Positions 6,626-30,555 of a DNA stretch of 32,996 nucleotides are shown piece after piece. Origin of the DNA: an uncultured Deinococcales bacterium. Lineage in GTDB: Bacteria; Deinococcota; Deinococci; Deinococcales; JAAFIG01. The DNA is taken from contig CAXTTL010000024.1 in the NCBI GenBank assembly GCA_964247135.1, positions 1-32,996 on the forward strand. The letters run 5' to 3'. The position numbers were made by a program, and so were the translations under genes. Position 1 is the first letter of the stretch. Each line of letters begins with the position of its first letter. Under the pieces are notes generated by a model. It made no database searches, was not told the origin of the DNA, and saw nothing but the letters and a program-made list of their open reading frames with translations.

Positions 6626-6885
6626 GCTATAAGCTGCAAGCCATAAGCTCTAAGGAACGGCGTTTTTGGCTTGCAGCTTGGAGCTTCTTCTTGATCCCAA
6701 GACGCACCTTCTCGACCCCAAAGATGCACCTTCTTGACCATAAAATGCACCTAACGGTCATGGTCGCTGACGGGCTTGGGTCGCTTCGGGCGGGATCGCT
6801 TGACCATTCCCGCTCCTTCTTGAACCTAAGCGTGCACCTTGCGGGCAGGTTCGCTCACGGGCATGGTCGCTTAAAGCTTATCGCC
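6626..6885. repeat. Inverted heptamer tandem-repeat element interrupted by nested micro-elements
   Basis: Left arm GCTATAA-GCTGCAA-GCCATAA-GCTCTAA; right arm GCTTGCA-GCTTGGA-G[insert]CTTAAA-GCTTATC; perfect 13-bp inverted repeat 6631-6643/6667-6679. Confidence 0.75.
6684..6869 (+). mobile_element. Five nested 36-39 nt hairpin micro-elements
   Basis: The region parses without leftover bases into five CTTCTYGA...CGG...TCG units, each with its own complementary stem; a near-identical copy lies at 28872-28907. Mobility is inferred. Confidence 0.75.
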
Positions 6886-16828: not shown

Positions 16829-16839
16829 TTGCTCTTTCT

Positions 16840-16884
16840 ACCCTCATCCCCAACCCTTCTCCCAACATTGGGAGAAGGGAGTTT
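16840..16884 (+). repeat. ~45-nt palindromic dispersed repeat, copy 1
   Basis: ACCCTCATCCCCAA-CCCTTCTCCCA-acat-TGGGAGAAGGG-AGTTT; related copies at 20033-20076 and 28756-28800. Confidence 0.85.
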
Positions 16885-16989
16885 AATTCGTACCTTGAGA
16901 GACGAGCATCATTGTGATTTCAGTCTTTCAAAGTTATTTTTGCCATTGGGAACACCACCAAATTGCAAACCGTTTCTCGAGGAAACAAT

Positions 16990-20151: not shown

Positions 20152-21822
20152 TCAGCGAAACGCACTCGCCCAAATTTGAGGTCCTGACAGATCAAAGACC
20201 GCGATGGCGTTACCCGCAGCATCAAAGGCAACTTGGTATGCGGTCACGCTATTGCTGGATACATTGGAACCAATGTCTGAGACTTTTACCGTATCTCCCC
20301 AACCAGTGTCTGTCGTGTAGCGCTTCGCCATAAGACCCCCATTAAGACCCCACGTGGCGATGGCATTACCATTGGCATCAACGGCAATCCGAGGGTCAAA
20401 ACCCTTTTGGGAACTGACGGTCTGGAGTACTTGGGGGGTACCCCAACCTTGCCCGAGAGGGTTGGTGTTTGTCCATATTTCTATGGCAGATGTTGTTAAA
20501 TTCTCCTGTATCCAGACCGCGATGGCGTTGCCGCCCGCATCAAGGGCAACCCTGCCAGTGTAGCTTTGTTTCGCATTTTCGGTCTTGATCGGCTGGGCTG
20601 TTCCCCAGCCACCCGAGGGCGTGTAGCGATTTGCCCAGACGTGATACGTGCCTTGGTTGCCAACCACAACAGATTGATTCCAGACCGCCATGACGTTACC
20701 GCTGGCATCGGCTGAAATGTCGGGTGTGTTCGCCTCGGATAACTCGTTTTCGATGGGGAATGCCACGTCCCAACCCGAAGTGGGTCTGTAAATATTTGCC
20801 CAAATGCTGTCATCAAAACCCCAGACCCCTTCGGATTGTATCCAAACCACGTGGGCGTTGCCTTGTGAGTCCATTACCACTTTGGGATTGTTGGCGGTGC
20901 CCTTGTTGTTGGTTTCGATCAACTCGGGGGTTGCCCAGCCTGTGCTTGGCGAGTACGAGTTTGCCCAGATGTTGGCTCGAGTACCATCATTTTGCGCCCA
21001 AACCGCGACGGCGCTGCCGCTTGGACTCATGGCGATCACTTGGTTTACGGCGTTGCGAATGGGTTCGGAATCTATTTCCTGGGCTTGACTCCAGCCGCTC
21101 AAAGGGGTGTAGCGACTGGCGAAGATGTCGCTGCGTGCGCTTACAGCATCCGTTTGACCCCAGACCACAATGGCGTGACCCATCTGATCGAGGGCGACTT
21201 GGGGAGCGTTGCGGTATTTTGGAGTTTGGGTTTCTACCTGCTGGGCGGTCCCCCAACCGGTCCCTGGCGTGTAGCGGTTTGCCCAGATGTGAGATTCTGT
21301 CGCGGTTGATTCAACCCAGACCGCCACGGCATTGCCGTCCTTGTCCATCGCAATCTGGGGTCCTTGGTGGCTCAAAGAACTTTTGTCGTCGATCTGCTCG
21401 ATGTTCTGCCAGGTTCCATCACGGGTCGTAAAATTCCAACTCGAGCCGGCGAAGGAATTGCCCGCCAGGTCGGTCAGTCCAGTCCCCAGGGTTGCCGTAT
21501 AGCTGGTTCTCAGGTTGAGGGTGGGATGCTCGAGATTGATGACATTACCGTTAGCGATGGAGGTGATGGGAACGGTTTTGTTGTCCTTGAGTTGCTTCAG
21601 TGTGACGTTCACACCAACTGTGGCTGCTGAAAGTGCCTCACTGAAGGTTGCCGAAATTGGACTGGAAATATCCACCAATTTTGCATCCTGCAACGGAACA
21701 GTCGCGCTGAGCGTGGGGGCGGTGGTATCCGAACTCGAGCCACCTGTACCATTGCATCCGATTAAAACCGTAACCAAGAGACTTAACACTGTGGTTCGCG
21801 CAATTGTCGCCATTGTTTTCAT
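20152..21822 (-). CDS. Lipoprotein with Ig-like (Big_5-type) domain and ~49-aa repeats (probable beta-propeller)
   Basis: Lipobox LIGC; DTTAPT...ATFSE...LTDLAGN...WNFTT; recurring DxxGNAxAVW...WANRYTPxxGW units. Confidence 0.85.
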   Translation of the reverse strand: MKTMATIARTTVLSLLVTVLIGCNGTGGSSSDTTAPTLSATVPLQDAKLVDISSPISATFSEALSAATVGVNVTLKQLKDNKTVPITSIANGNVINLEHPTLNLRTSYTATLGTGLTDLAGNSFAGSSWNFTTRDGTWQNIEQIDDKSSLSHQGPQIAMDKDGNAVAVWVESTATESHIWANRYTPGTGWGTAQQVETQTPKYRNAPQVALDQMGHAIVVWGQTDAVSARSDIFASRYTPLSGWSQAQEIDSEPIRNAVNQVIAMSPSGSAVAVWAQNDGTRANIWANSYSPSTGWATPELIETNNKGTANNPKVVMDSQGNAHVVWIQSEGVWGFDDSIWANIYRPTSGWDVAFPIENELSEANTPDISADASGNVMAVWNQSVVVGNQGTYHVWANRYTPSGGWGTAQPIKTENAKQSYTGRVALDAGGNAIAVWIQENLTTSAIEIWTNTNPLGQGWGTPQVLQTVSSQKGFDPRIAVDANGNAIATWGLNGGLMAKRYTTDTGWGDTVKVSDIGSNVSSNSVTAYQVAFDAAGNAIAVFDLSGPQIWASAFR

Positions 21823-23171: not shown

Positions 23172-24926
23172 ATGACTCAGGCGAACGCCACTTCCGACAC
23201 GGAACTCGAGGCTTTGCTTGAGCAGTTTGATGCCCTGATTGACCGTCAACCAGTTGATGCCCTGGGGTTGGCACAATCGGCGCTTTCGTTGGTAAAGACC
23301 GAACTCGAGCGCGGCAAGGTGTTGGTGCGCCTGGGTTGGGCACAGCGGGTGCTCTCCAAACTTCATGACGCCGAACTCCATAACACCGAGGCGCTAGCGA
23401 TTTTTGAGCGTTTGAACGACCTCGAGCATCACAGTTTGGCGCTGATTTTGGCTGGAACGATTGATGTTTTCACGGGGCATCGTGAACGGGCGTACCGGCA
23501 TCTGATCTTGGCGCTCGAGCAAAGCCGCGCGATTGGGCACCGCTTGTACGAGGCGCGGGCGTGCAATGCCTTGGGGGCATTGTTTGATTGGTACAGCAAC
23601 CCCAGTGTGGCGCTCGAATATTTGCTCGAGGCATTGCGTTTGATGCGTGAATTGGATGAGGTGATGCTCGAGAACATGACCTTATCGAACATCGGCGCAA
23701 TTTATTTCCGTCAAGGCGAGTACCAGAAGGCGCTGGAGTGCTATCACGAGGCTTTGGAAAACTTGCGTGATTTGAACGCTGGCACTTTGGTGGGCATCAC
23801 ACAGCTCAATATTGCTGAGAGTTTGATCAAGTTGGATCGGGCGGCGGACGCCGAGGCACTCTTACATTTTGCGCTTTTTGATACGCGTGCCAGCAAGCAC
23901 GTGGCGGCAGAAGTTTTTGCCCTGCGGACTTTGGGCGTTGCACAATTGGCACAACACAAGCTCGAGGCTGCCTTTGAGCAGTTCCAAGCGGCGTTAACCC
24001 TGGCAAACGAACACGAATTGTTCGAGGAGGCAGGCTTGGCAAATTTGGGCTGTGGGCAGGTCTTGTTGGCGCTGGGACGCGATGCCCAAGCCCTTATTGC
24101 GCTGACCAATGCCTCGTCAAGCTTGCAAGAGAGCAGCGCCGAGAATCAACTCGAGTTGTACCAAGCCTTGGTGAAAACCTACGAGCGACTCGGTGATTTT
24201 AAGGCGGCGCTCACGGTACAACGTCAATTTTCGGCGCTTGAGGGTCAGTACCGTGAAACCAACTCGCAACGTTACGTGCAAAGTCTCATGCTGCGTTTTG
24301 AACTGGCGCAAATGAAACAACAAACAGCCGTGACGCTCGAGCGCAACCGCGATTTGCAAGTCCTGGTGCAAGAAAAAGAGCGCTTGAGCGCCGAACTCGA
24401 GCGCCTGAGTTTGCAAGACCCGCTGACGGGTTTGTTCAACCGCAGGTATTTGGATTTGCATTTTCCCGAGTTGCTCGAGGTCTTCGGGGCGCGTCAAAGC
24501 CAGGTGGCGGTCGCCATGATCGACATCGATTTTTTCAAAACCGTCAACGATCAGTTTTCGCATTTGATTGGCGATGCGGTCTTGCGCCAAATTGGCGCGT
24601 TGTTGCAGCAAAACCTGCGACCGAGCGACATTGCCACGCGTTACGGCGGCGAAGAATTTTTGATTATTTTTCCTGGCGCGACGCTGGACGTGGCACACCT
24701 GCGCTGCGAGCAACTGCGGGCGGAGATTGAGCAATTTGATTGGCAACGCATTCACGCGCAGTTGCGGGTCACCATCAGCATTGGCTTGGTGGTTTCTCAG
24801 CCTTTTGAGAGCGTTCTGCACGTGCTCTCTCGAGCCGATGAATTACTTTACGCGGCAAAAACGGCTGGGCGCAACCGTGTGATCTCGAGCACTGCAGCTT
24901 TGAACGCTGGCAGAAATTTGCATTAA
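23172..24926 (+). CDS. TPR-containing diguanylate cyclase
   Basis: TPR repeats, DPLTGLFNRR, DIDFFKTVND, RPSD I-site and RYGGEEF active site. Confidence 0.94.
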   Translation: MTQANATSDTELEALLEQFDALIDRQPVDALGLAQSALSLVKTELERGKVLVRLGWAQRVLSKLHDAELHNTEALAIFERLNDLEHHSLALILAGTIDVFTGHRERAYRHLILALEQSRAIGHRLYEARACNALGALFDWYSNPSVALEYLLEALRLMRELDEVMLENMTLSNIGAIYFRQGEYQKALECYHEALENLRDLNAGTLVGITQLNIAESLIKLDRAADAEALLHFALFDTRASKHVAAEVFALRTLGVAQLAQHKLEAAFEQFQAALTLANEHELFEEAGLANLGCGQVLLALGRDAQALIALTNASSSLQESSAENQLELYQALVKTYERLGDFKAALTVQRQFSALEGQYRETNSQRYVQSLMLRFELAQMKQQTAVTLERNRDLQVLVQEKERLSAELERLSLQDPLTGLFNRRYLDLHFPELLEVFGARQSQVAVAMIDIDFFKTVNDQFSHLIGDAVLRQIGALLQQNLRPSDIATRYGGEEFLIIFPGATLDVAHLRCEQLRAEIEQFDWQRIHAQLRVTISIGLVVSQPFESVLHVLSRADELLYAAKTAGRNRVISSTAALNAGRNLH

Positions 24927-27751
24927 ACGCCTCGCAATGCCGCCGCCAATTCGTGCTCCTCGAGCTTCAAGATCACGCCGTGGACCAAAAACGTGATCCG
25001 AACTTCGGGTGAAAGTTCTGGTTTGGCAAGTTTGATGGCTTCGCGGTACAGCGCCAGTTGACGGTGGTACGCCCGAACCCGTTGCGGCAGCGCCTCGTCT
25101 GGTACATCGTCGGTTTTGAAATCCTCGAGAATCCAAGTGCCATTTGGTTCTTGGTACAAACGGTCGATCAAGCCCTGCCAGGTCGTGCCGTTGCGAGAAA
25201 AAGCAAACGGCAATTCCGCAAAATCTTGCGGGCGCTCACTTCGGTCTGGATAGAGGGCATGGTATCTCGAGACAAGCCACCAGGCACGCTCGAGCATGGT
25301 TTGACGCTCCGAATCCGAGTACGGATGCAGGAGGTACTGGGCGGCAAGCACTTGCTGATGTCGAAGGTTGTGGGCTTCGAGGTTTTCGGCAATCGCATAA
25401 TGCGTCAATGTGCCGATCACACGGTCTGATTCTGGAATGCCCATAAATTCCGTCTCGAGCGCGGCGTTTGGGACTTCATCTGGGATTTCGGTGTCGAGTT
25501 CGCTGATGTCGGCAAGTTCTGGGTCAAGCGGTGTGCCACTGGCTTCTGGGGCTTTGCTTGGGGCGCGAACGCGGCGGGCGGGTCGGGCAAATCTGGCTTT
25601 GGCAAGATCAACATCGGCACTAAACCGAGGCTCGAGGATGATGGGCGCAGGCATTTCGGCGGTTTCAAAAACGTTGACCTCGTGGTGCAAAACTTCAATC
25701 CCTGGCATTCCGTCGGGTTTCTCGAGCAACTGTAATTTATTTAAAAGCGTATCCAGCCAAGCCCGAGGTTTGTTGGTGGTTGATCCAGTCATGATAAGAC
25801 GGTCTTTGGCGCGGGTCAGGGCAACGTACAAAAGTCGGTTGCTCTCCCCTTCCGAACGGCGTTTGAGGTGCTCGAGAATGCTGGCATACCGCGTGGCGGT
25901 CAAGCCTTTTTTGGCTCGGGCATTGGGCTTGAGGGCAACTTCACCGTCTGGGTGTACCACCAAATCTGGGCGTTGCGGGTTCTCGCCTCGAGCCAGGTCA
26001 AAGACTGCCGTCACCGGAAACTCGAGTCCCTTGCTGGAATGCACGGTCAAGAGTCGCACGGCGTCGCCCGCCTCGAGCGGTTCGTCGCTTTCGGCTTCAC
26101 TCAACCTGGCACGTTCGAGGAAGCTGAGGGCGGCTCGAGGGTCGCGTAAGCCCCGAGCGGCGAGTTGATAGAGCAGCCCGTCGAGGTTGGCGGTGGCTTG
26201 ACGGTTGACGGCGAGCACGCTGTAACCCAAGAAAACCCAGGCATCTTCGAGCAAAGTCACAGCATCTTTGGCGTCACGGACAATCTCGAGCAGTTCTCGC
26301 AGACGCAAAGTTTCGGGGGCGGATGATTTGCGCAAACCGATGCGAATGTCGTTTTCATTCCGCAAAATTTCCTCGAGATGTTGAAGCGGCAAGTCAATGC
26401 CTGGAATCCTCGAGAGTGCGGAGAGTGCAAACGCAAATTCTGGGGCATCGGGAGCAACGAGCCGCGCCCGCAGCAGCGTGATCGCGTCGCGGATTTCACG
26501 GCGGTCATAATATTTTTGTCCTGCCACCATCAGCATGGGCACAGCCTCGAGCGCCAGGGCAAGCTCGAGCGGCGGCAGGGATGTTCTCGAGCGCACGAGT
26601 ACAGCCATGTCGTGCCAGGGCGTGCCAGATCGGTTGAGTTCACACAATCTTCGCGCCAGAAAAGCAGCTTCGGCGTGGCGTCCAGCCTCGAGGCTGGCGG
26701 CTTGAAAAACGTGCAGTTCGACTCGAGGTTCAAAACCGTCTTCGGGTTTGATGCGCCCTGGTTTGACCTCGCTGGGCAAACCGATTTCGGAAAATTCTGG
26801 GAAGAGCTTCGCGGAGAGGCTTGAGTAAAACGCGCTGAGGGACACACCGTGCCTGTAGGTGGTGGTCAGTGGCGCGAGGGTTTTGGCGCGTTGATAGACG
26901 TCCAAAAAGGCATTCACGTCGGCGTCCCGAAAGGCGTAAATACTCTGCTTGGGATCACCGACCAGCAGCACGCGCTCGAGGTTTAAACTCTGAAAAATCT
27001 TGGCTTGCAACGGGTTGACATCCTGAAATTCATCGACCAGCAAGACCGAAACCCGAGACCTGACGCGCTCGAGCATGTTGGGATCGCAGAGCAATTCCAG
27101 GGTTCTCAGTTCGACATCGGTGGGCGCGAGCGCTCGAGATGCCAGCCGCGACAGGTACAAATTCAAACTGCTTTCAAAGGCTGCCAGCAACGACACCGTG
27201 AGCGCATCGGGTTGGATGCCATCCTCGAGATTTCCAGATCGAAACGGGGCGTAAACGCGTTTGTTGTGTAACGCCTCGAGTGCAGATAATGTACGTTCCC
27301 AACCGAGCGTTGCCAAGGCTTCACCGCCGGGCGCGTCGCGCAACGCCGCCTGTGCCAGGACGCTCGAGGCGGCGTCCCTGAACGTCTCGAGGGATTCGCT
27401 TTCGTCGAGGTTGCTGAATTCTGGGTCGAGGTTGAGCGCGGGAGCGTTTAAACGCAGCAACTCGCGGAAAAAACCGTGAATTGTCGTGATGCTGGCACTG
27501 CCAAGTTCACGCAACGCCACGCGGTACAACTCGAGGTTGGCGGGTTTAAAATTCAGATAACTGCCGTGCAGCACCACCTCGCGCAGACCGGCGCGAAGCC
27601 GTTCGCGCAAATCGATTGCCCCAACCCGAGTGAACGTCACCGCCGCAATCCGCCGAGCCGGTGTAAACCGCAACGCCATCAGGTACTCGAGCACCAAACT
27701 GGTGGTTTTACCCGTTCCAGCCGAAGCCGAACGTACCTCGAGGTTGGTCAT
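24923..27751 (-). CDS. addA: AddA-like UvrD helicase with RecB-type nuclease
   Basis: ASAGTGKT, VTFT, VDEFQD, VGDPKQSIYAFR, TVHSSKGLEF, LLYVALTRAK, and GLIDRL...EDFKT...QLALY; ATGA overlap with addB. Confidence 0.85.
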   Translation of the reverse strand: MTNLEVRSASAGTGKTTSLVLEYLMALRFTPARRIAAVTFTRVGAIDLRERLRAGLREVVLHGSYLNFKPANLELYRVALRELGSASITTIHGFFRELLRLNAPALNLDPEFSNLDESESLETFRDAASSVLAQAALRDAPGGEALATLGWERTLSALEALHNKRVYAPFRSGNLEDGIQPDALTVSLLAAFESSLNLYLSRLASRALAPTDVELRTLELLCDPNMLERVRSRVSVLLVDEFQDVNPLQAKIFQSLNLERVLLVGDPKQSIYAFRDADVNAFLDVYQRAKTLAPLTTTYRHGVSLSAFYSSLSAKLFPEFSEIGLPSEVKPGRIKPEDGFEPRVELHVFQAASLEAGRHAEAAFLARRLCELNRSGTPWHDMAVLVRSRTSLPPLELALALEAVPMLMVAGQKYYDRREIRDAITLLRARLVAPDAPEFAFALSALSRIPGIDLPLQHLEEILRNENDIRIGLRKSSAPETLRLRELLEIVRDAKDAVTLLEDAWVFLGYSVLAVNRQATANLDGLLYQLAARGLRDPRAALSFLERARLSEAESDEPLEAGDAVRLLTVHSSKGLEFPVTAVFDLARGENPQRPDLVVHPDGEVALKPNARAKKGLTATRYASILEHLKRRSEGESNRLLYVALTRAKDRLIMTGSTTNKPRAWLDTLLNKLQLLEKPDGMPGIEVLHHEVNVFETAEMPAPIILEPRFSADVDLAKARFARPARRVRAPSKAPEASGTPLDPELADISELDTEIPDEVPNAALETEFMGIPESDRVIGTLTHYAIAENLEAHNLRHQQVLAAQYLLHPYSDSERQTMLERAWWLVSRYHALYPDRSERPQDFAELPFAFSRNGTTWQGLIDRLYQEPNGTWILEDFKTDDVPDEALPQRVRAYHRQLALYREAIKLAKPELSPEVRITFLVHGVILKLEEHELAAALRGV

Positions 27752-30555
27752 ATCGCTTCCCGACACACATCGCGGTACGAACAATAACGGCAGTGAAAAC
27801 CGCTCGAGGCTGAAATACTGCCCTCTTGCAAGGTTTGATTGGCTTTTTCCAGGGCGGTCATGGATTGTGCCAGACGACGTTGCGCGTAAGGCTTATCAAA
27901 ACCCATCACGCGTTTCGGGGCGTGGTTCAAATCCCAAGCCCAAAGCACCACAGGCACGTTTTGCTCGAGCCAGTGGTTGGCGTACCACCATTCGCGGTGT
28001 CGGGTATCAGACATGTACTCGTCGTAAGCATCGTCGAGGTTTTTCACGACGCGGTACACCTCAACCATTCTGACCTTGCCGCTCGGGTCTTGCCGAATGC
28101 GCACCCCGTCCAGCACAAACTCGAGGTCGTCAATGATTGCGCGGTATCCGAGTTGAATGTCGCTGGCATCGGGACGGCTTGGCACATTTTCTTGCACCGT
28201 CTGCTCGAGTTGCGCCCTGAACTTCGGCGCGAGGTTTGCCAGCGTCGCGCGGTGCGCTTCGGGGGCGACCTCGGACAGATTCTTGCCCTTGTTCTGCCAC
28301 AAATTATTGCGTTGCGCCCTCGTCCAACCCTCGAGCAATTCACCAGAAACCAAACCCGCACCCCTGGCGGGCGCGGGAATCAAACCCTCCGCCCAAGCTT
28401 TGAGCGCACAGACCGCCACCCGCTCGAGTTCGGTGGCTTTGCGAGCCACCCGCACCGAAACTTGATGAACCGAATCTTGAGGCTGGTGAAGATTGGCATT
28501 GAGCGCCGCAAGCTCGAGCGGTGAAGCCGTTGGAAAAACCCGTTTTTGACCGTGCTGCTCGAGTTGCGACAATCTCGGATGCGGTCGGAGGCTCGAGCCT
28601 CGCTCTGCTCTGGCATACGACACGACCAGCAGTTCATCGGCTCGGGTGAAAGCATCATAAAGCTGGGAATCCTCGAGACCATTTAACCTGAACGGAAGTC
28701 GGGCTTCGGTGGTTTGAAGCTCGAGGGTTGGTTCGTCGAGGTCGAGGTCTTGTCCACCCTCATCCCCGACCCTTCTCCCCCCTAGGGAGAAGGGAGTTTT
28801 GGTTATTTCTTGTGTGGCTGAAATATTTTGATTTGATACCTCGAGATTTTCAATTTGATGTAGGGGCGAACCTTCTTGATTCCAAGACGCACCTTCGGGC
28901 GGAATCGCTTGTGTTCGCCCATCACCTCCATTCGGTATCTCGGGATTCCCAATTTCAAGATTTTCTTGCACGAGATTCATTGGAACCTCGAGATTTACCA
29001 GCAATTCCTCGAGTTTGCTGCGTTGTTCTTCTGGAACAAAAAAATCTTCGCCATCACCCGTTTTGTACGCGCCGTCGGTTGCGCCCATCACGAAACTGAT
29101 CTTAAAGCGCCTGCCGCTGGCTTCTTCGGCACTGAGTACCGCCACGCCGCGTCCAAGGTCTTCATGGGCGACGGTGACGCTGGCGAGCAGGCTTTGCACC
29201 CAGTCGGTGAAGACCGCACCTTCGACCTGGGCTTGGTTGCCGAGGATGCGGGCGGCTTCTCGGGCGATCACTTTGGCGGTGTCGCAAAAACTGGCGTCTT
29301 TGAAGTGACGCTCGAGCAGGGTTTCAAACCAGTGAATCAATTGCTCGCTCGAGGCGTGCTGCGGTGGTTGCGCAATCTGTTTGATACGCTCGAGGGCAGC
29401 GAGGGCGTTTGGATCGTCGCAGACCAGGGCGTAAGCGTCCAGTCCGGCGGCAATGCCGTTTTGCTCGAGTTTTTCTGCCAGCAGCAGGACATCGGGTTCG
29501 AGCGCGGCGAGGGTTCGCAGATCGCGGGCTGGGTAATCTCGGGCGGGGGCGCGGAGCAACGCCTCGAGTTGCCGCCCGTTGGGGGTCTCGAGGATTGAGC
29601 CGCTGGTTTCTGGGGCGATGGGCACGCCGTATTCGCGTCCCAATGCCTCGAGCACCCGAGCGATGGCGGGGTGCGGGATGATGATGCAAATGTCTTGACT
29701 CGGCGTGCCGTTTTGAAGGCGTTGTTTGATTTCGCGCAGCACCCCTCGAGCCTCCTCGACGGGGTTGGCGTAGGTCTCCAAACGCGTGATTTTGGGCATT
29801 CCAGCCCAGGGTTTGCCTTTGGCGTTCAAGTACCTGATTTTGGCGTTGAAGGCGGTAGCAATTTGCTCGAGTTCTGGTTTGCGAAGTGGGTGCGCCCAGG
29901 CTTCAGAATGCGTGTCGGGCAAGCCTGAGGGTAGGGTCACGAGGGTGCTTTTGGCGAGGCTGGCGAGGGCGCAGAATATCCGCAATTCGCTGGGGTTGAA
30001 ACTTCGGTAGCCGTCAACGATCAAATGCGCATTCAAGGCTTGCGGGTTGGTGGTTAAAAGTTGCGCGGTGCGAATCCGAACGTCGTCGAGGTCTTGCAAC
30101 ACGCCAAGCTCGAGTTCGGTTTGATAGGCGTGAAACACCTGAAACAAAATATGCTGGTACGCCTCTTCAGACCCGAGGGGCGCGACCAGGTTGCGTTTGA
30201 ATTCGGCGATAGCCCTGGCATAAAGCCTCGCCTCGCCAGGGTTGACGTTGCGTTTTAATATTTTCTCGAGCACCCGTGCCGTTAATGCCACGCGCCCAGG
30301 ATTCAGCACAATCGCGCGGTTTTCGCCCAGACGATCCAGCACGCGGTAGGCAATGTTTTGCAGGTTCGTGACTTCGACGCCCAAACTCGCACCCGCACTT
30401 GCCAGTCGCTCGAGCCAGCCTGAACGCTGCCCTGGCAGGGTCAGCACAATGACCCGCTCCCCCGCCGTCGCCAACTCGAGCGCCCGAGCGACGGCAGCGC
30501 CGGTTTTGCCGCTGGCGGCGGGTCCAGTCAAAAGTTGTGCGCTCGCCGTGGTCAC
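27748..30555 (-). CDS. addB: AddB-like partner subunit (inactive helicase fold, Fe-S cysteines, degenerate nuclease)
   Basis: N-terminal GPAASGKT, LYDAFTRA, Cys in VCALK plus terminal CRYCSYRDVC; translationally coupled to addA. Confidence 0.78.
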   Translation of the reverse strand: MTTASAQLLTGPAASGKTGAAVARALELATAGERVIVLTLPGQRSGWLERLASAGASLGVEVTNLQNIAYRVLDRLGENRAIVLNPGRVALTARVLEKILKRNVNPGEARLYARAIAEFKRNLVAPLGSEEAYQHILFQVFHAYQTELELGVLQDLDDVRIRTAQLLTTNPQALNAHLIVDGYRSFNPSELRIFCALASLAKSTLVTLPSGLPDTHSEAWAHPLRKPELEQIATAFNAKIRYLNAKGKPWAGMPKITRLETYANPVEEARGVLREIKQRLQNGTPSQDICIIIPHPAIARVLEALGREYGVPIAPETSGSILETPNGRQLEALLRAPARDYPARDLRTLAALEPDVLLLAEKLEQNGIAAGLDAYALVCDDPNALAALERIKQIAQPPQHASSEQLIHWFETLLERHFKDASFCDTAKVIAREAARILGNQAQVEGAVFTDWVQSLLASVTVAHEDLGRGVAVLSAEEASGRRFKISFVMGATDGAYKTGDGEDFFVPEEQRSKLEELLVNLEVPMNLVQENLEIGNPEIPNGGDGRTQAIPPEGASWNQEGSPLHQIENLEVSNQNISATQEITKTPFSLGGRRVGDEGGQDLDLDEPTLELQTTEARLPFRLNGLEDSQLYDAFTRADELLVVSYARAERGSSLRPHPRLSQLEQHGQKRVFPTASPLELAALNANLHQPQDSVHQVSVRVARKATELERVAVCALKAWAEGLIPAPARGAGLVSGELLEGWTRAQRNNLWQNKGKNLSEVAPEAHRATLANLAPKFRAQLEQTVQENVPSRPDASDIQLGYRAIIDDLEFVLDGVRIRQDPSGKVRMVEVYRVVKNLDDAYDEYMSDTRHREWWYANHWLEQNVPVVLWAWDLNHAPKRVMGFDKPYAQRRLAQSMTALEKANQTLQEGSISASSGFHCRYCSYRDVCREAI
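28756..28800 (+). repeat. ~45-nt palindromic dispersed repeat, copy 3, inside addB coding sequence
   Basis: ACCCTCATCCCCGA-CCCTTCTCCC-cccta-GGGAGAAGGG-AGTTTT; translated as KTPFSLGGRRVGDEG on the minus strand. Confidence 0.85.
28860..28920 (+). repeat. GTAG-type REP-like palindrome interrupted by a 36-nt micro-element (28872-28907), inside addB
   Basis: GTAG-GGGCGAAC[36 nt]CTTGT-GTTCGCCC; the insert matches the outer halves at 6687-6707 and 6784-6798 at 34/36 nt. Confidence 0.8.

Follow-up and report, generated by a model that had tools for sequence, protein, structure and literature searches.

Hairpin repeats that lie in frame within genes are already known. The passages on intragenic copies in Di Nocera, De Gregorio and Rocco (2013, BMC Genomics 14:522; PMC3733652) describe repetitive extragenic palindromic (REP) sequences of the GTAG/CGTC type inside genes, where the inserts encode 20-82 residues and where loop or linker positions are suggested for them. 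The same passages link REPs to REP-associated tyrosine transposases (RAYTs) and point out that intragenic REPs stand out in genes for replication and repair (UvrABCD, recBCD, PolA), often as the only tagged coding sequences of a genome. Here we describe an unusually clear and fast-changing case, an in-frame insert in the addB-like gene of an uncultured Deinococcales bacterium. The gene lies on a contig (C24) of 32,996 nucleotides (nt), which was analysed as a whole and is called the window; the contig belongs to genome G000 (5.09 Mb in 386 contigs, 52.6% G+C, estimated 84% complete). Three genome-wide repeat families were found within the insert, all in frame: a palindromic unit (P1), a GTAG-headed REP and a 36-nt micro-element that sits in the loop of the REP. 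The surface loop that they occupy is very probably a permissive site that gathers and sheds small mobile hairpin DNA elements.

Like the REPs treated in those passages of PMC3733652, the AddB copy is a GTAG-headed short palindrome in frame in a repair gene. It differs from them in its host, an uncultured Deinococcales family, in the second, smaller element in the REP loop, and in its site, where several repeat families with no relation to one another are found and which varies among close relatives. The words 'Deinococc', 'Thermus', 'AddA' and 'AddB' do not occur in the main text of that paper. In the sections on REPINs and RAYTs of Bertels and Rainey (2011, PMC3116915), GTAG REPs are described, many of them as inverted doublets, and RAYT genes are flanked by inverted REPs. 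The GTAG REPs of G000 resemble that description, as many are inverted doublets and the RAYT genes stand between inverted REPs. Unlike the arrangement set out there, the AddB REP is a singlet with a foreign hairpin in its loop, and the RAYT genes of G000 are flanked by other REP types.

The section on Rickettsia palindromic elements (RPEs) in a review on MITEs (transposable elements of the miniature inverted-repeat type; PMC10969869) presents repeats of ~150 bp that are found in Rickettsia only, sit in frame in many housekeeping genes that have no relation to one another and are translated, and that are considered compatible with the way the protein folds. Palindromic repeats in frame in a housekeeping gene are common to both cases. 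With units of 25, 36-40 and ~60 nt (against about 100-150 bp in that section) and a Deinococcales host, the present repeats are not RPEs, and AddB is their only clear internal composite case in G000. MITEs are marked by terminal inverted repeats with a target-site duplication; the micro-element is a single hairpin with 2-5 ambiguous junction bases. In a full-text search of the literature, neither these elements nor an abundance of CTCGAG was found described for Deinococcales.

The micro-element works like the small dispersed repeats (SDRs) of cyanobacteria, which are reportedly very small elements (~21-27 nt) found inside one another and inside larger hairpin repeats, and which are said to extend proteins sometimes with the frame intact. 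It is likewise nested in other repeats and in itself. We do not treat it as a member of that group: it occurs in Deinococcota, measures 36-40 nt, has a seemingly unrelated sequence, forms a single hairpin with covarying stem subfamilies and coexists with RAYT genes. We know of no account of how the cyanobacterial SDRs move.

Extent of the insert and nature of its host protein

When the AddB-like protein was searched against 5.8 billion sequences, 61 relatives were found, and the query was aligned with 24 sequences, 12 of them close and 12 selected from farther away (n = 25). The original prediction, made from the DNA letters of the window, had placed an insertion of ~95 amino acids (aa) in AddB at 28700-28995. 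The segment LEVPMNL...TEARLP was found between DFFVPEEQR (aa 504-512) and LYDAFTRA (aa 632-639), and the extra residues are aa 521-618 (98 residues). Between query aa 520 and aa 619, all 12 out-of-genus orthologs have 2-4 residues, and all 13 genus-level sequences have 41-148 residues. The possibility that repeat-free orthologs carry a segment of similar length, which the original prediction had raised itself, does not apply.

In a six-frame search of 30 related genomes, the matches in same-family genomes of other genera run to query aa ~519 and resume at ~613-620, with a gap between. The expansion of the loop is restricted to the window's genus among the relatives compared. Among the 13 genus-level sequences, the loop is also the sole internal block wider than 3 alignment columns that varies in length; apart from it, lengths differ in a 3-column block near aa 267-269 and at the N-terminus, where the proteins start differently. 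At the empty-site junction of the out-of-genus orthologs there is no obvious hairpin or target word, and nothing that marks a target. An Rfam scan of 28500-29200 (E up to 1) gave no match. Among public read sets, one DNA run (0.05 share of words) and no RNA run came up.

The ratio of nonsynonymous to synonymous substitution rates (dN/dS) against the G005 ortholog was 0.097 over 835 codons outside the insert (0.095 in the N-terminal and 0.101 in the C-terminal part) and 0.63 over 93 aligned codons inside it. These ratios point to strong purifying selection on AddB outside the insert and to nearly neutral evolution of the insert itself. The gene is functional and not a pseudogene, which had been considered. 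Constraint is equally strong downstream of the insert and every allele has an open frame, which speaks for ribosomes that pass through the insert. Removal at the RNA level is argued against, because the insert would then need no stop-free, in-frame state. In the AlphaFold2 (AF2) model, the predicted local distance difference test (pLDDT) is <50 over residues 499-629 and no secondary structure is seen in 521-629, in agreement with the disordered loop that was expected at the outset.

Several lines of evidence indicate that the host open reading frame (ORF) is AddB-like. The Pfam family ADDB_N, an N-terminal superfamily 1 (SF1)-like ATP-binding domain of the AddB type, scores 31.5 bits (cut-off 26.6), and the Walker A motif GPAASGKT is present. 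C716, C922, C925 and C931 are invariant across the 25 aligned sequences; with Bacillus subtilis AddB as a guide, they may be ligands of an iron-sulfur cluster. The top Foldseek matches of the AF2 model were 3u44_B (B. subtilis AddB, E 1.5e-22), 4ceh_B and 3u4q_B (E ~1e-22), all of them whole-chain matches, and a sequence search of solved structures gave matches confined to the N-terminal 200 residues (PcrA, AddB). An addA-like gene is adjacent. PDDEXK_1 is a weak match (17.4 bits, under the cut-off of 22). The Gram-positive AddB equivalog TIGR02773 was rejected for this ORF (26 bits versus a cut-off of 903.7). The loop presumably lies in the degenerate helicase domain 2A, between the motif-V-like FVMGATDG and the motif-VI-like LYDAFTRAD, if the motif names of SF1 helicases are carried over. 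At what we assume on the same grounds to be the equivalent place, AddA has a natural spacer of ~55 residues.

The repeat families, their distribution and candidate enzymes

Three DNA repeats, kept in frame within an open ORF, had been named at the outset: a palindrome at 28756-28800, a GTAG REP-like palindrome at 28860-28920 and a 36-nt micro-element nested in the latter. All three proved to be genome-wide families, and the frame is open over 935 aa. They cover only ~121 of the 294 nt of the insert (41%), and the other ~59% matches no dispersed family in G000. To call this remainder 'low complexity' is to describe it loosely. When the window was shuffled 100 times, none of the three typed patterns was recovered at the same stringency, with the exception of the 12-mer GTAG head (13/100).

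The first palindrome has exact 10-bp arms and is part of the larger P1 unit. What P1 copies have in common is an extension on the 5' side, a palindrome whose 10-bp arms enclose a variable loop, and a tail rich in T. In G000, the left-core pattern CTCATCCCC.ACCC gave 108 matches and the right-arm pattern 99, a few of them by chance. The AddB copy resembles other copies over window positions ~28754-28812, and its minus-strand (coding) reading is KTPFSLGGRRVGDEGG plus flanking residues. P1 copies are found with and without a micro-element between CCCTTC and TCYC.

The REP has a 25-nt consensus, GTAGGGG[CT]GAAC-CTTGT-GTTC[GA]CCC, in which the GTAG head is followed by a short imperfect palindrome. 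A total of 39 copies were found in G000, of which 30 are bare 25-mers and nine, the AddB copy included, are filled with one or more micro-elements in the loop. The empty form reads GTAGGGG[CT]GAACCTTGTGTTC[GA]CCC. On filling, GAACCTTGTGTTC becomes GAACCT[36-40 nt]TGTGTTC, with 2-3 ambiguous bases, and the whole reaches 61-63 nt, or 97 nt for a double nest. The AddB copy reads GTAGGGGCGAAC...GTTCGCCC. Copies are dispersed and lie mostly outside genes, as judged from ORF spans. Further GTAG REP families are present in G000.

The micro-element is laid out as TCTTG, 5' stem, A-rich bulge, GCACCT, loop, GGGC, 3' stem and CGCT; the AddB copy is translated as AIPPEGASWNQ. G000 contains 168 copies by a loose and 156 by a strict count, and a second pattern gave 158 matches versus 1 for its reversed control. 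When the outer 7-bp stem was scored in 117 distinct members, 744 of 819 cells were paired, against a mean of 589 and a maximum of 619 in 500 shuffles; eight rows that had no TCTTG-type head at the start or no GCACCT were left out of this count. Several Watson-Crick pair types occur at five stem positions, so the subfamilies differ by compensatory changes.

For the 156 strict copies, the surroundings are the loop of another copy (36 cases), P1 (24), a tandem array (22), some other hairpin whose flanks are complementary over 6 bp or more (16) or none of these (58). In the case of self-nesting, the insertion is directly after GCACCT, in the apical loop of the outer copy. Comparison of empty and filled sites leaves 2-5 ambiguous junction bases (CT, CTT or CTTCT), for which a short duplication and target homology are both possible. 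The micro-element is a discrete insertion that sits preferentially in loops and stems of other hairpins, its own included. This loop-targeting, covarying family of 36-40 nt is the most original part of the case. Its preference for hairpin loops suggests insertion into single-stranded or extruded DNA, perhaps by an enzyme similar to those that may move REPs. Head-to-tail tandem arrays of 3-4 micro-elements with a 36-39-nt period were observed on C6 (near 21109-21220 and 61345-61460), C102 (13615-13740), C263 and C53.

Lengths of the micro-element (n = 157) are 36 nt (33 copies), 37 (71), 38 (18), 39 (20) and 40 (15). In five of the six reading frames, 68-93% of copies contain no stop. Only 53 of the 157 lengths are divisible by 3. 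An element designed for in-frame insertion was therefore rejected, and preservation of the frame is better seen as selection on outcomes, as the original prediction had proposed.

The hexamer CTCGAG is found 33,925 times in G000, where the average hexamer occurs 1,243 times (a ratio of ~27). A 19-nt direct repeat with CTCGAG is present four times inside the insert; its copies are 74% alike and hint at some local duplication. ENLE-type words are recurrent in the insert. Within the AddB loop, CTCGAG marks the module boundaries, at window 28718-28723 and 28841-28846 among others, and is read there in frame as N-L-E.

When all patterns were placed on G000, 22 of the 363 hits were at least 40 codons from both ends of open frames of at least 250 codons (13 frames). 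Most of these 22 fall in stop-free stretches upstream of the likely start codon, and the one on C10 is a chance match to a short pattern. AddB is the only clearly internal composite case among the 363 hits. Candidate further internal micro-elements were seen in two open frames, both putative genes, at C14:39179-40408 (minus) and C46:328-1155 (plus); in one of them, the micro-element stands in a Lys/Thr/Pro-rich linker before a helix-hairpin-helix-like end.

The micro-element pattern was found in all 18 same-family genomes, and none of the order's 12 other-family genomes had more than 3 hits. The REP pattern was present in 17 of the 18 and in none of the 12. Four Y1-transposase matches were found in G000. 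Two ORFs, on C136 and C1, pass the NCBIfam model NF047646 for REP-associated tyrosine transposase (scores of 83.2 and 196.9 bits; cut-off 80), and both are flanked by inverted GTAG hairpins whose REP types are other than that of AddB. An IS200/IS605 TnpA on C249 was considered as the source of the micro-element and dropped, as the 1.5 kb to either side of it are free of micro-element, P1 and GTAG copies. A Y1-transposase-like ORF on C5 (5372-5548, locus L032) is shortened (123 aa), lacks the HUH stretch of the C136 copy and bears another GTAG REP, GTAGGGGATGGTCTCAGACCATCCCC, in frame.

Turnover of the loop and competing explanations

The loop DNA from DFF to TRAD measures 411 nt in G000, 390 nt in G005, 270 nt in G004 and 600 nt in G002. 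In two of the five same-genus assemblies, G001 (locus L003) and G003 (locus L004), addB is split between contigs inside the loop; the repeats break short-read assemblies. Every complete allele stays open. A single clade, made up of P0001 and P0004-P0012, has P1, and the basal P0013-P0015 lack it. The REP with a micro-element is found in G000, G005 and G002, and the same REP loop holds a micro-element of the GATTCC/GGAATC subfamily in G000 and of the GACCAT/ATGGTC subfamily in G005 and G002. The REP arms differ by paired changes (GCGAAC/GTTCGC in G000 versus GCGATC/GATCGC in G005), and paired changes between orthologs are seen in the P1 stem as well. A 13-residue segment inside the P1 peptide of P0007, P0009, P0010 and P0012 is a micro-element by position and sequence. 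The G002/G003 loop has an extra segment (121 nt in G002) that belongs to a dispersed repeat, found at 23 places in G002, 13 in G003, 11 in G001, 6 in G005 and 1 in G000.

At least four repeat families are thus represented in the loop across relatives, and both its length and the modules it contains are hypervariable, although the sequences share 84-90% identity outside it. In G004/P0011, REP and micro-element are missing, and the protein is 47 aa shorter than the query there, with a 51-residue loop. It groups with P0009 and P0010 (137-142 residues) with a FastTree support of 0.915. Since P0011/G004 is nested among long-loop sequences, its short loop is more likely due to deletion, and the missing 141 nt were plausibly lost between the two bounding AATCTCGAG words. 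The landing pad envisaged in the original prediction is supported by this diversity in the sole variable block, with the refinement that the loop also shrinks by deletion.

The account that we favour is as follows. In G000 the loop contains a P1 unit and a 25-nt GTAG REP, into whose own loop the 36-nt micro-element has inserted. All three are very probably translated as a peptide that is disordered and evolves almost neutrally. REPs, and perhaps micro-elements too, are probably moved on single-stranded DNA by RAYT/Y1 (HUH) enzymes. The survivors would be only those insertions and combinations that bring no stops and keep the frame, and modules would be removed by deletions between the repeated AATCTCGAG (N-L-E) words.

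Several points weigh against this account of a site that gathers and sheds elements. No RAYT flanked by the REP type of AddB was found in the G000 assembly (84% complete), and no enzyme was tied to the micro-element or P1. The differing micro-element subfamilies at one site could come from gene conversion and not from excision and re-insertion. For some differences, gain is told from loss by a FastTree topology whose support is moderate (0.915 at the key clade and lower at other nodes). That the insert is translated is deduced from conservation downstream of it and from the open frame that every allele has. Overall, the AF2 model is of mediocre quality (mean pLDDT 69, predicted template modelling score 0.43), and 'disordered' is a prediction only. 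In addition, ~41% of the insert can be assigned to the three families, and the remainder includes the 41-52 aa of P0013-P0015, which have no P1.

A broader reading joins these observations, and we consider it tentative and rather doubtful as a whole. Under it, the micro-element would be a distinct, currently active, ultra-small mobile class of one uncultured Deinococcales family that homes to exposed CT-containing sites in the loops and stems of other hairpins (REPs, P1 and its own copies) and is moved on single-stranded DNA by RAYT/Y1 HUH enzymes. The accumulation in AddB would be no accident, as an altered end-processing enzyme would change the handling of hairpin or single-stranded intermediates.

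The loop might instead be a selected functional addition to AddB in which the repeats were co-opted, as a flexible acidic tether, a segment that binds a partner or a cluster of mRNA hairpins by which translation of AddB is tuned relative to AddA. At least 41 aa are kept in all 13 genus-level sequences, and the mRNA-sense fold of the insert is more stable than that of shuffled sequences (z = -3.4; none of 200 shuffles folds equally well). The passages of Di Nocera et al. (PMC3733652) on repair genes also contain the speculation that REP tags alter activity. However, the hypervariable content and length and the dN/dS of 0.63 are hard to reconcile with a selected function, no secondary structure is predicted for the loop, and the repeat units are overwhelmingly outside long ORFs. 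The paired changes in the REP and P1 stems count in its favour, but conversion by other copies can give them too. We regard a selected function as improbable.

It is still less probable, and in our judgement very unlikely, that the insert grew mainly via local duplication or slippage of CTCGAG-bounded N-L-E words, with the dispersed repeats as a minor later addition. The 19-nt copies, the recurrent ENLE-type words, the large unassigned part of the insert and the abundance of CTCGAG, which offers many sites for illegitimate recombination, are what such growth would leave. However, the parts assigned to P1, the REP and the micro-element are exactly bounded and can be matched with empty sites at other places in the genome, the extra segments of relatives are also dispersed repeats, and the internal 19-nt copies are only 74% alike. 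A chimera of this fragmented metagenome-assembled genome (MAG) that joined repeat copies into the gene has next to no probability: the gene does break at contig ends in the loop in G001 and G003, but homologous modules stand at the same position and in frame in the independent assemblies G002, G004 and G005 and in ten metagenome proteins, and the flanking codons are continuous.

Orthologous alleles that are empty, filled and differently filled show here how, inside a single genus, selfish hairpin DNA can extend a protein loop from ~3 to ~150 residues while an important repair enzyme keeps working. AddB of Deinococcota thereby joins the unexplained bias of intragenic REPs toward replication and repair genes. 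That the sole clear internal case is in AddB echoes, without explaining it, the remark on REP-tagged repair genes in the passages of PMC3733652 cited above. A covarying, loop-targeting micro-element and RAYT genes in the same genomes make a tractable system for the movement of the smallest bacterial mobile repeats. Inserts of this kind also inflate and fragment MAG assemblies and create spurious 'low-complexity' protein segments.

Coordinates and other features of the window

The features of the window are listed in Table 1. The AddA-like gene is directly downstream of the AddB-like gene and overlaps its stop region; its ORF scores 127 bits for UvrD-helicase, 94.6 bits for UvrD_C and 31.2 bits for PDDEXK_1 (Pfam).

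Table 1 Positions of the AddB-like gene, its insert, the repeats and neighbouring features in the window
Feature	Position	Strand	Basis or remark
AddB-like gene hosting the insert	27748..30555	minus	Open frame of 935 aa; Pfam ADDB_N; Foldseek; invariant Cys
Genus-specific insert, hypervariable loop predicted to be disordered	28702..28995	minus	aa 521-618; 24-ortholog alignment, pLDDT, dN/dS, fold
P1 repeat unit (5' extension, palindrome, tail)	28753..28812	+	BLAST and pattern census, ~100 copies
Perfect palindromic core of P1, 10-bp arms, 5-nt loop	28770..28794	.	Arms 28770-28779 and 28785-28794
REP, left part (GTAG head, 5' arm, first loop bases)	28860..28873	+	REP census
Micro-element inside the REP loop, GATTCC/GGAATC subfamily	28874..28909	+	36 nt; phase ambiguous by 2-3 nt
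REP, right part (rest of loop and 3' arm)	28910..28920	+	REP census
AddA-like gene	24923..27784	minus	Pfam domains
Other P1 copy in the window, AACAT loop variant, outside the AddB gene	16837..16890	+	Repeat comparison; palindrome copy at 16829-16890
Nested micro-elements, three deep ('Russian doll'), then a second nested pair	6685..6870	+	In-window repeat comparison

Direct repeats with a 156-168-nt period were also observed at window 20196-21354, where a 37-nt word occurs six times and a 62-nt word four times. They look like a repeated protein domain unrelated to the hairpin families.

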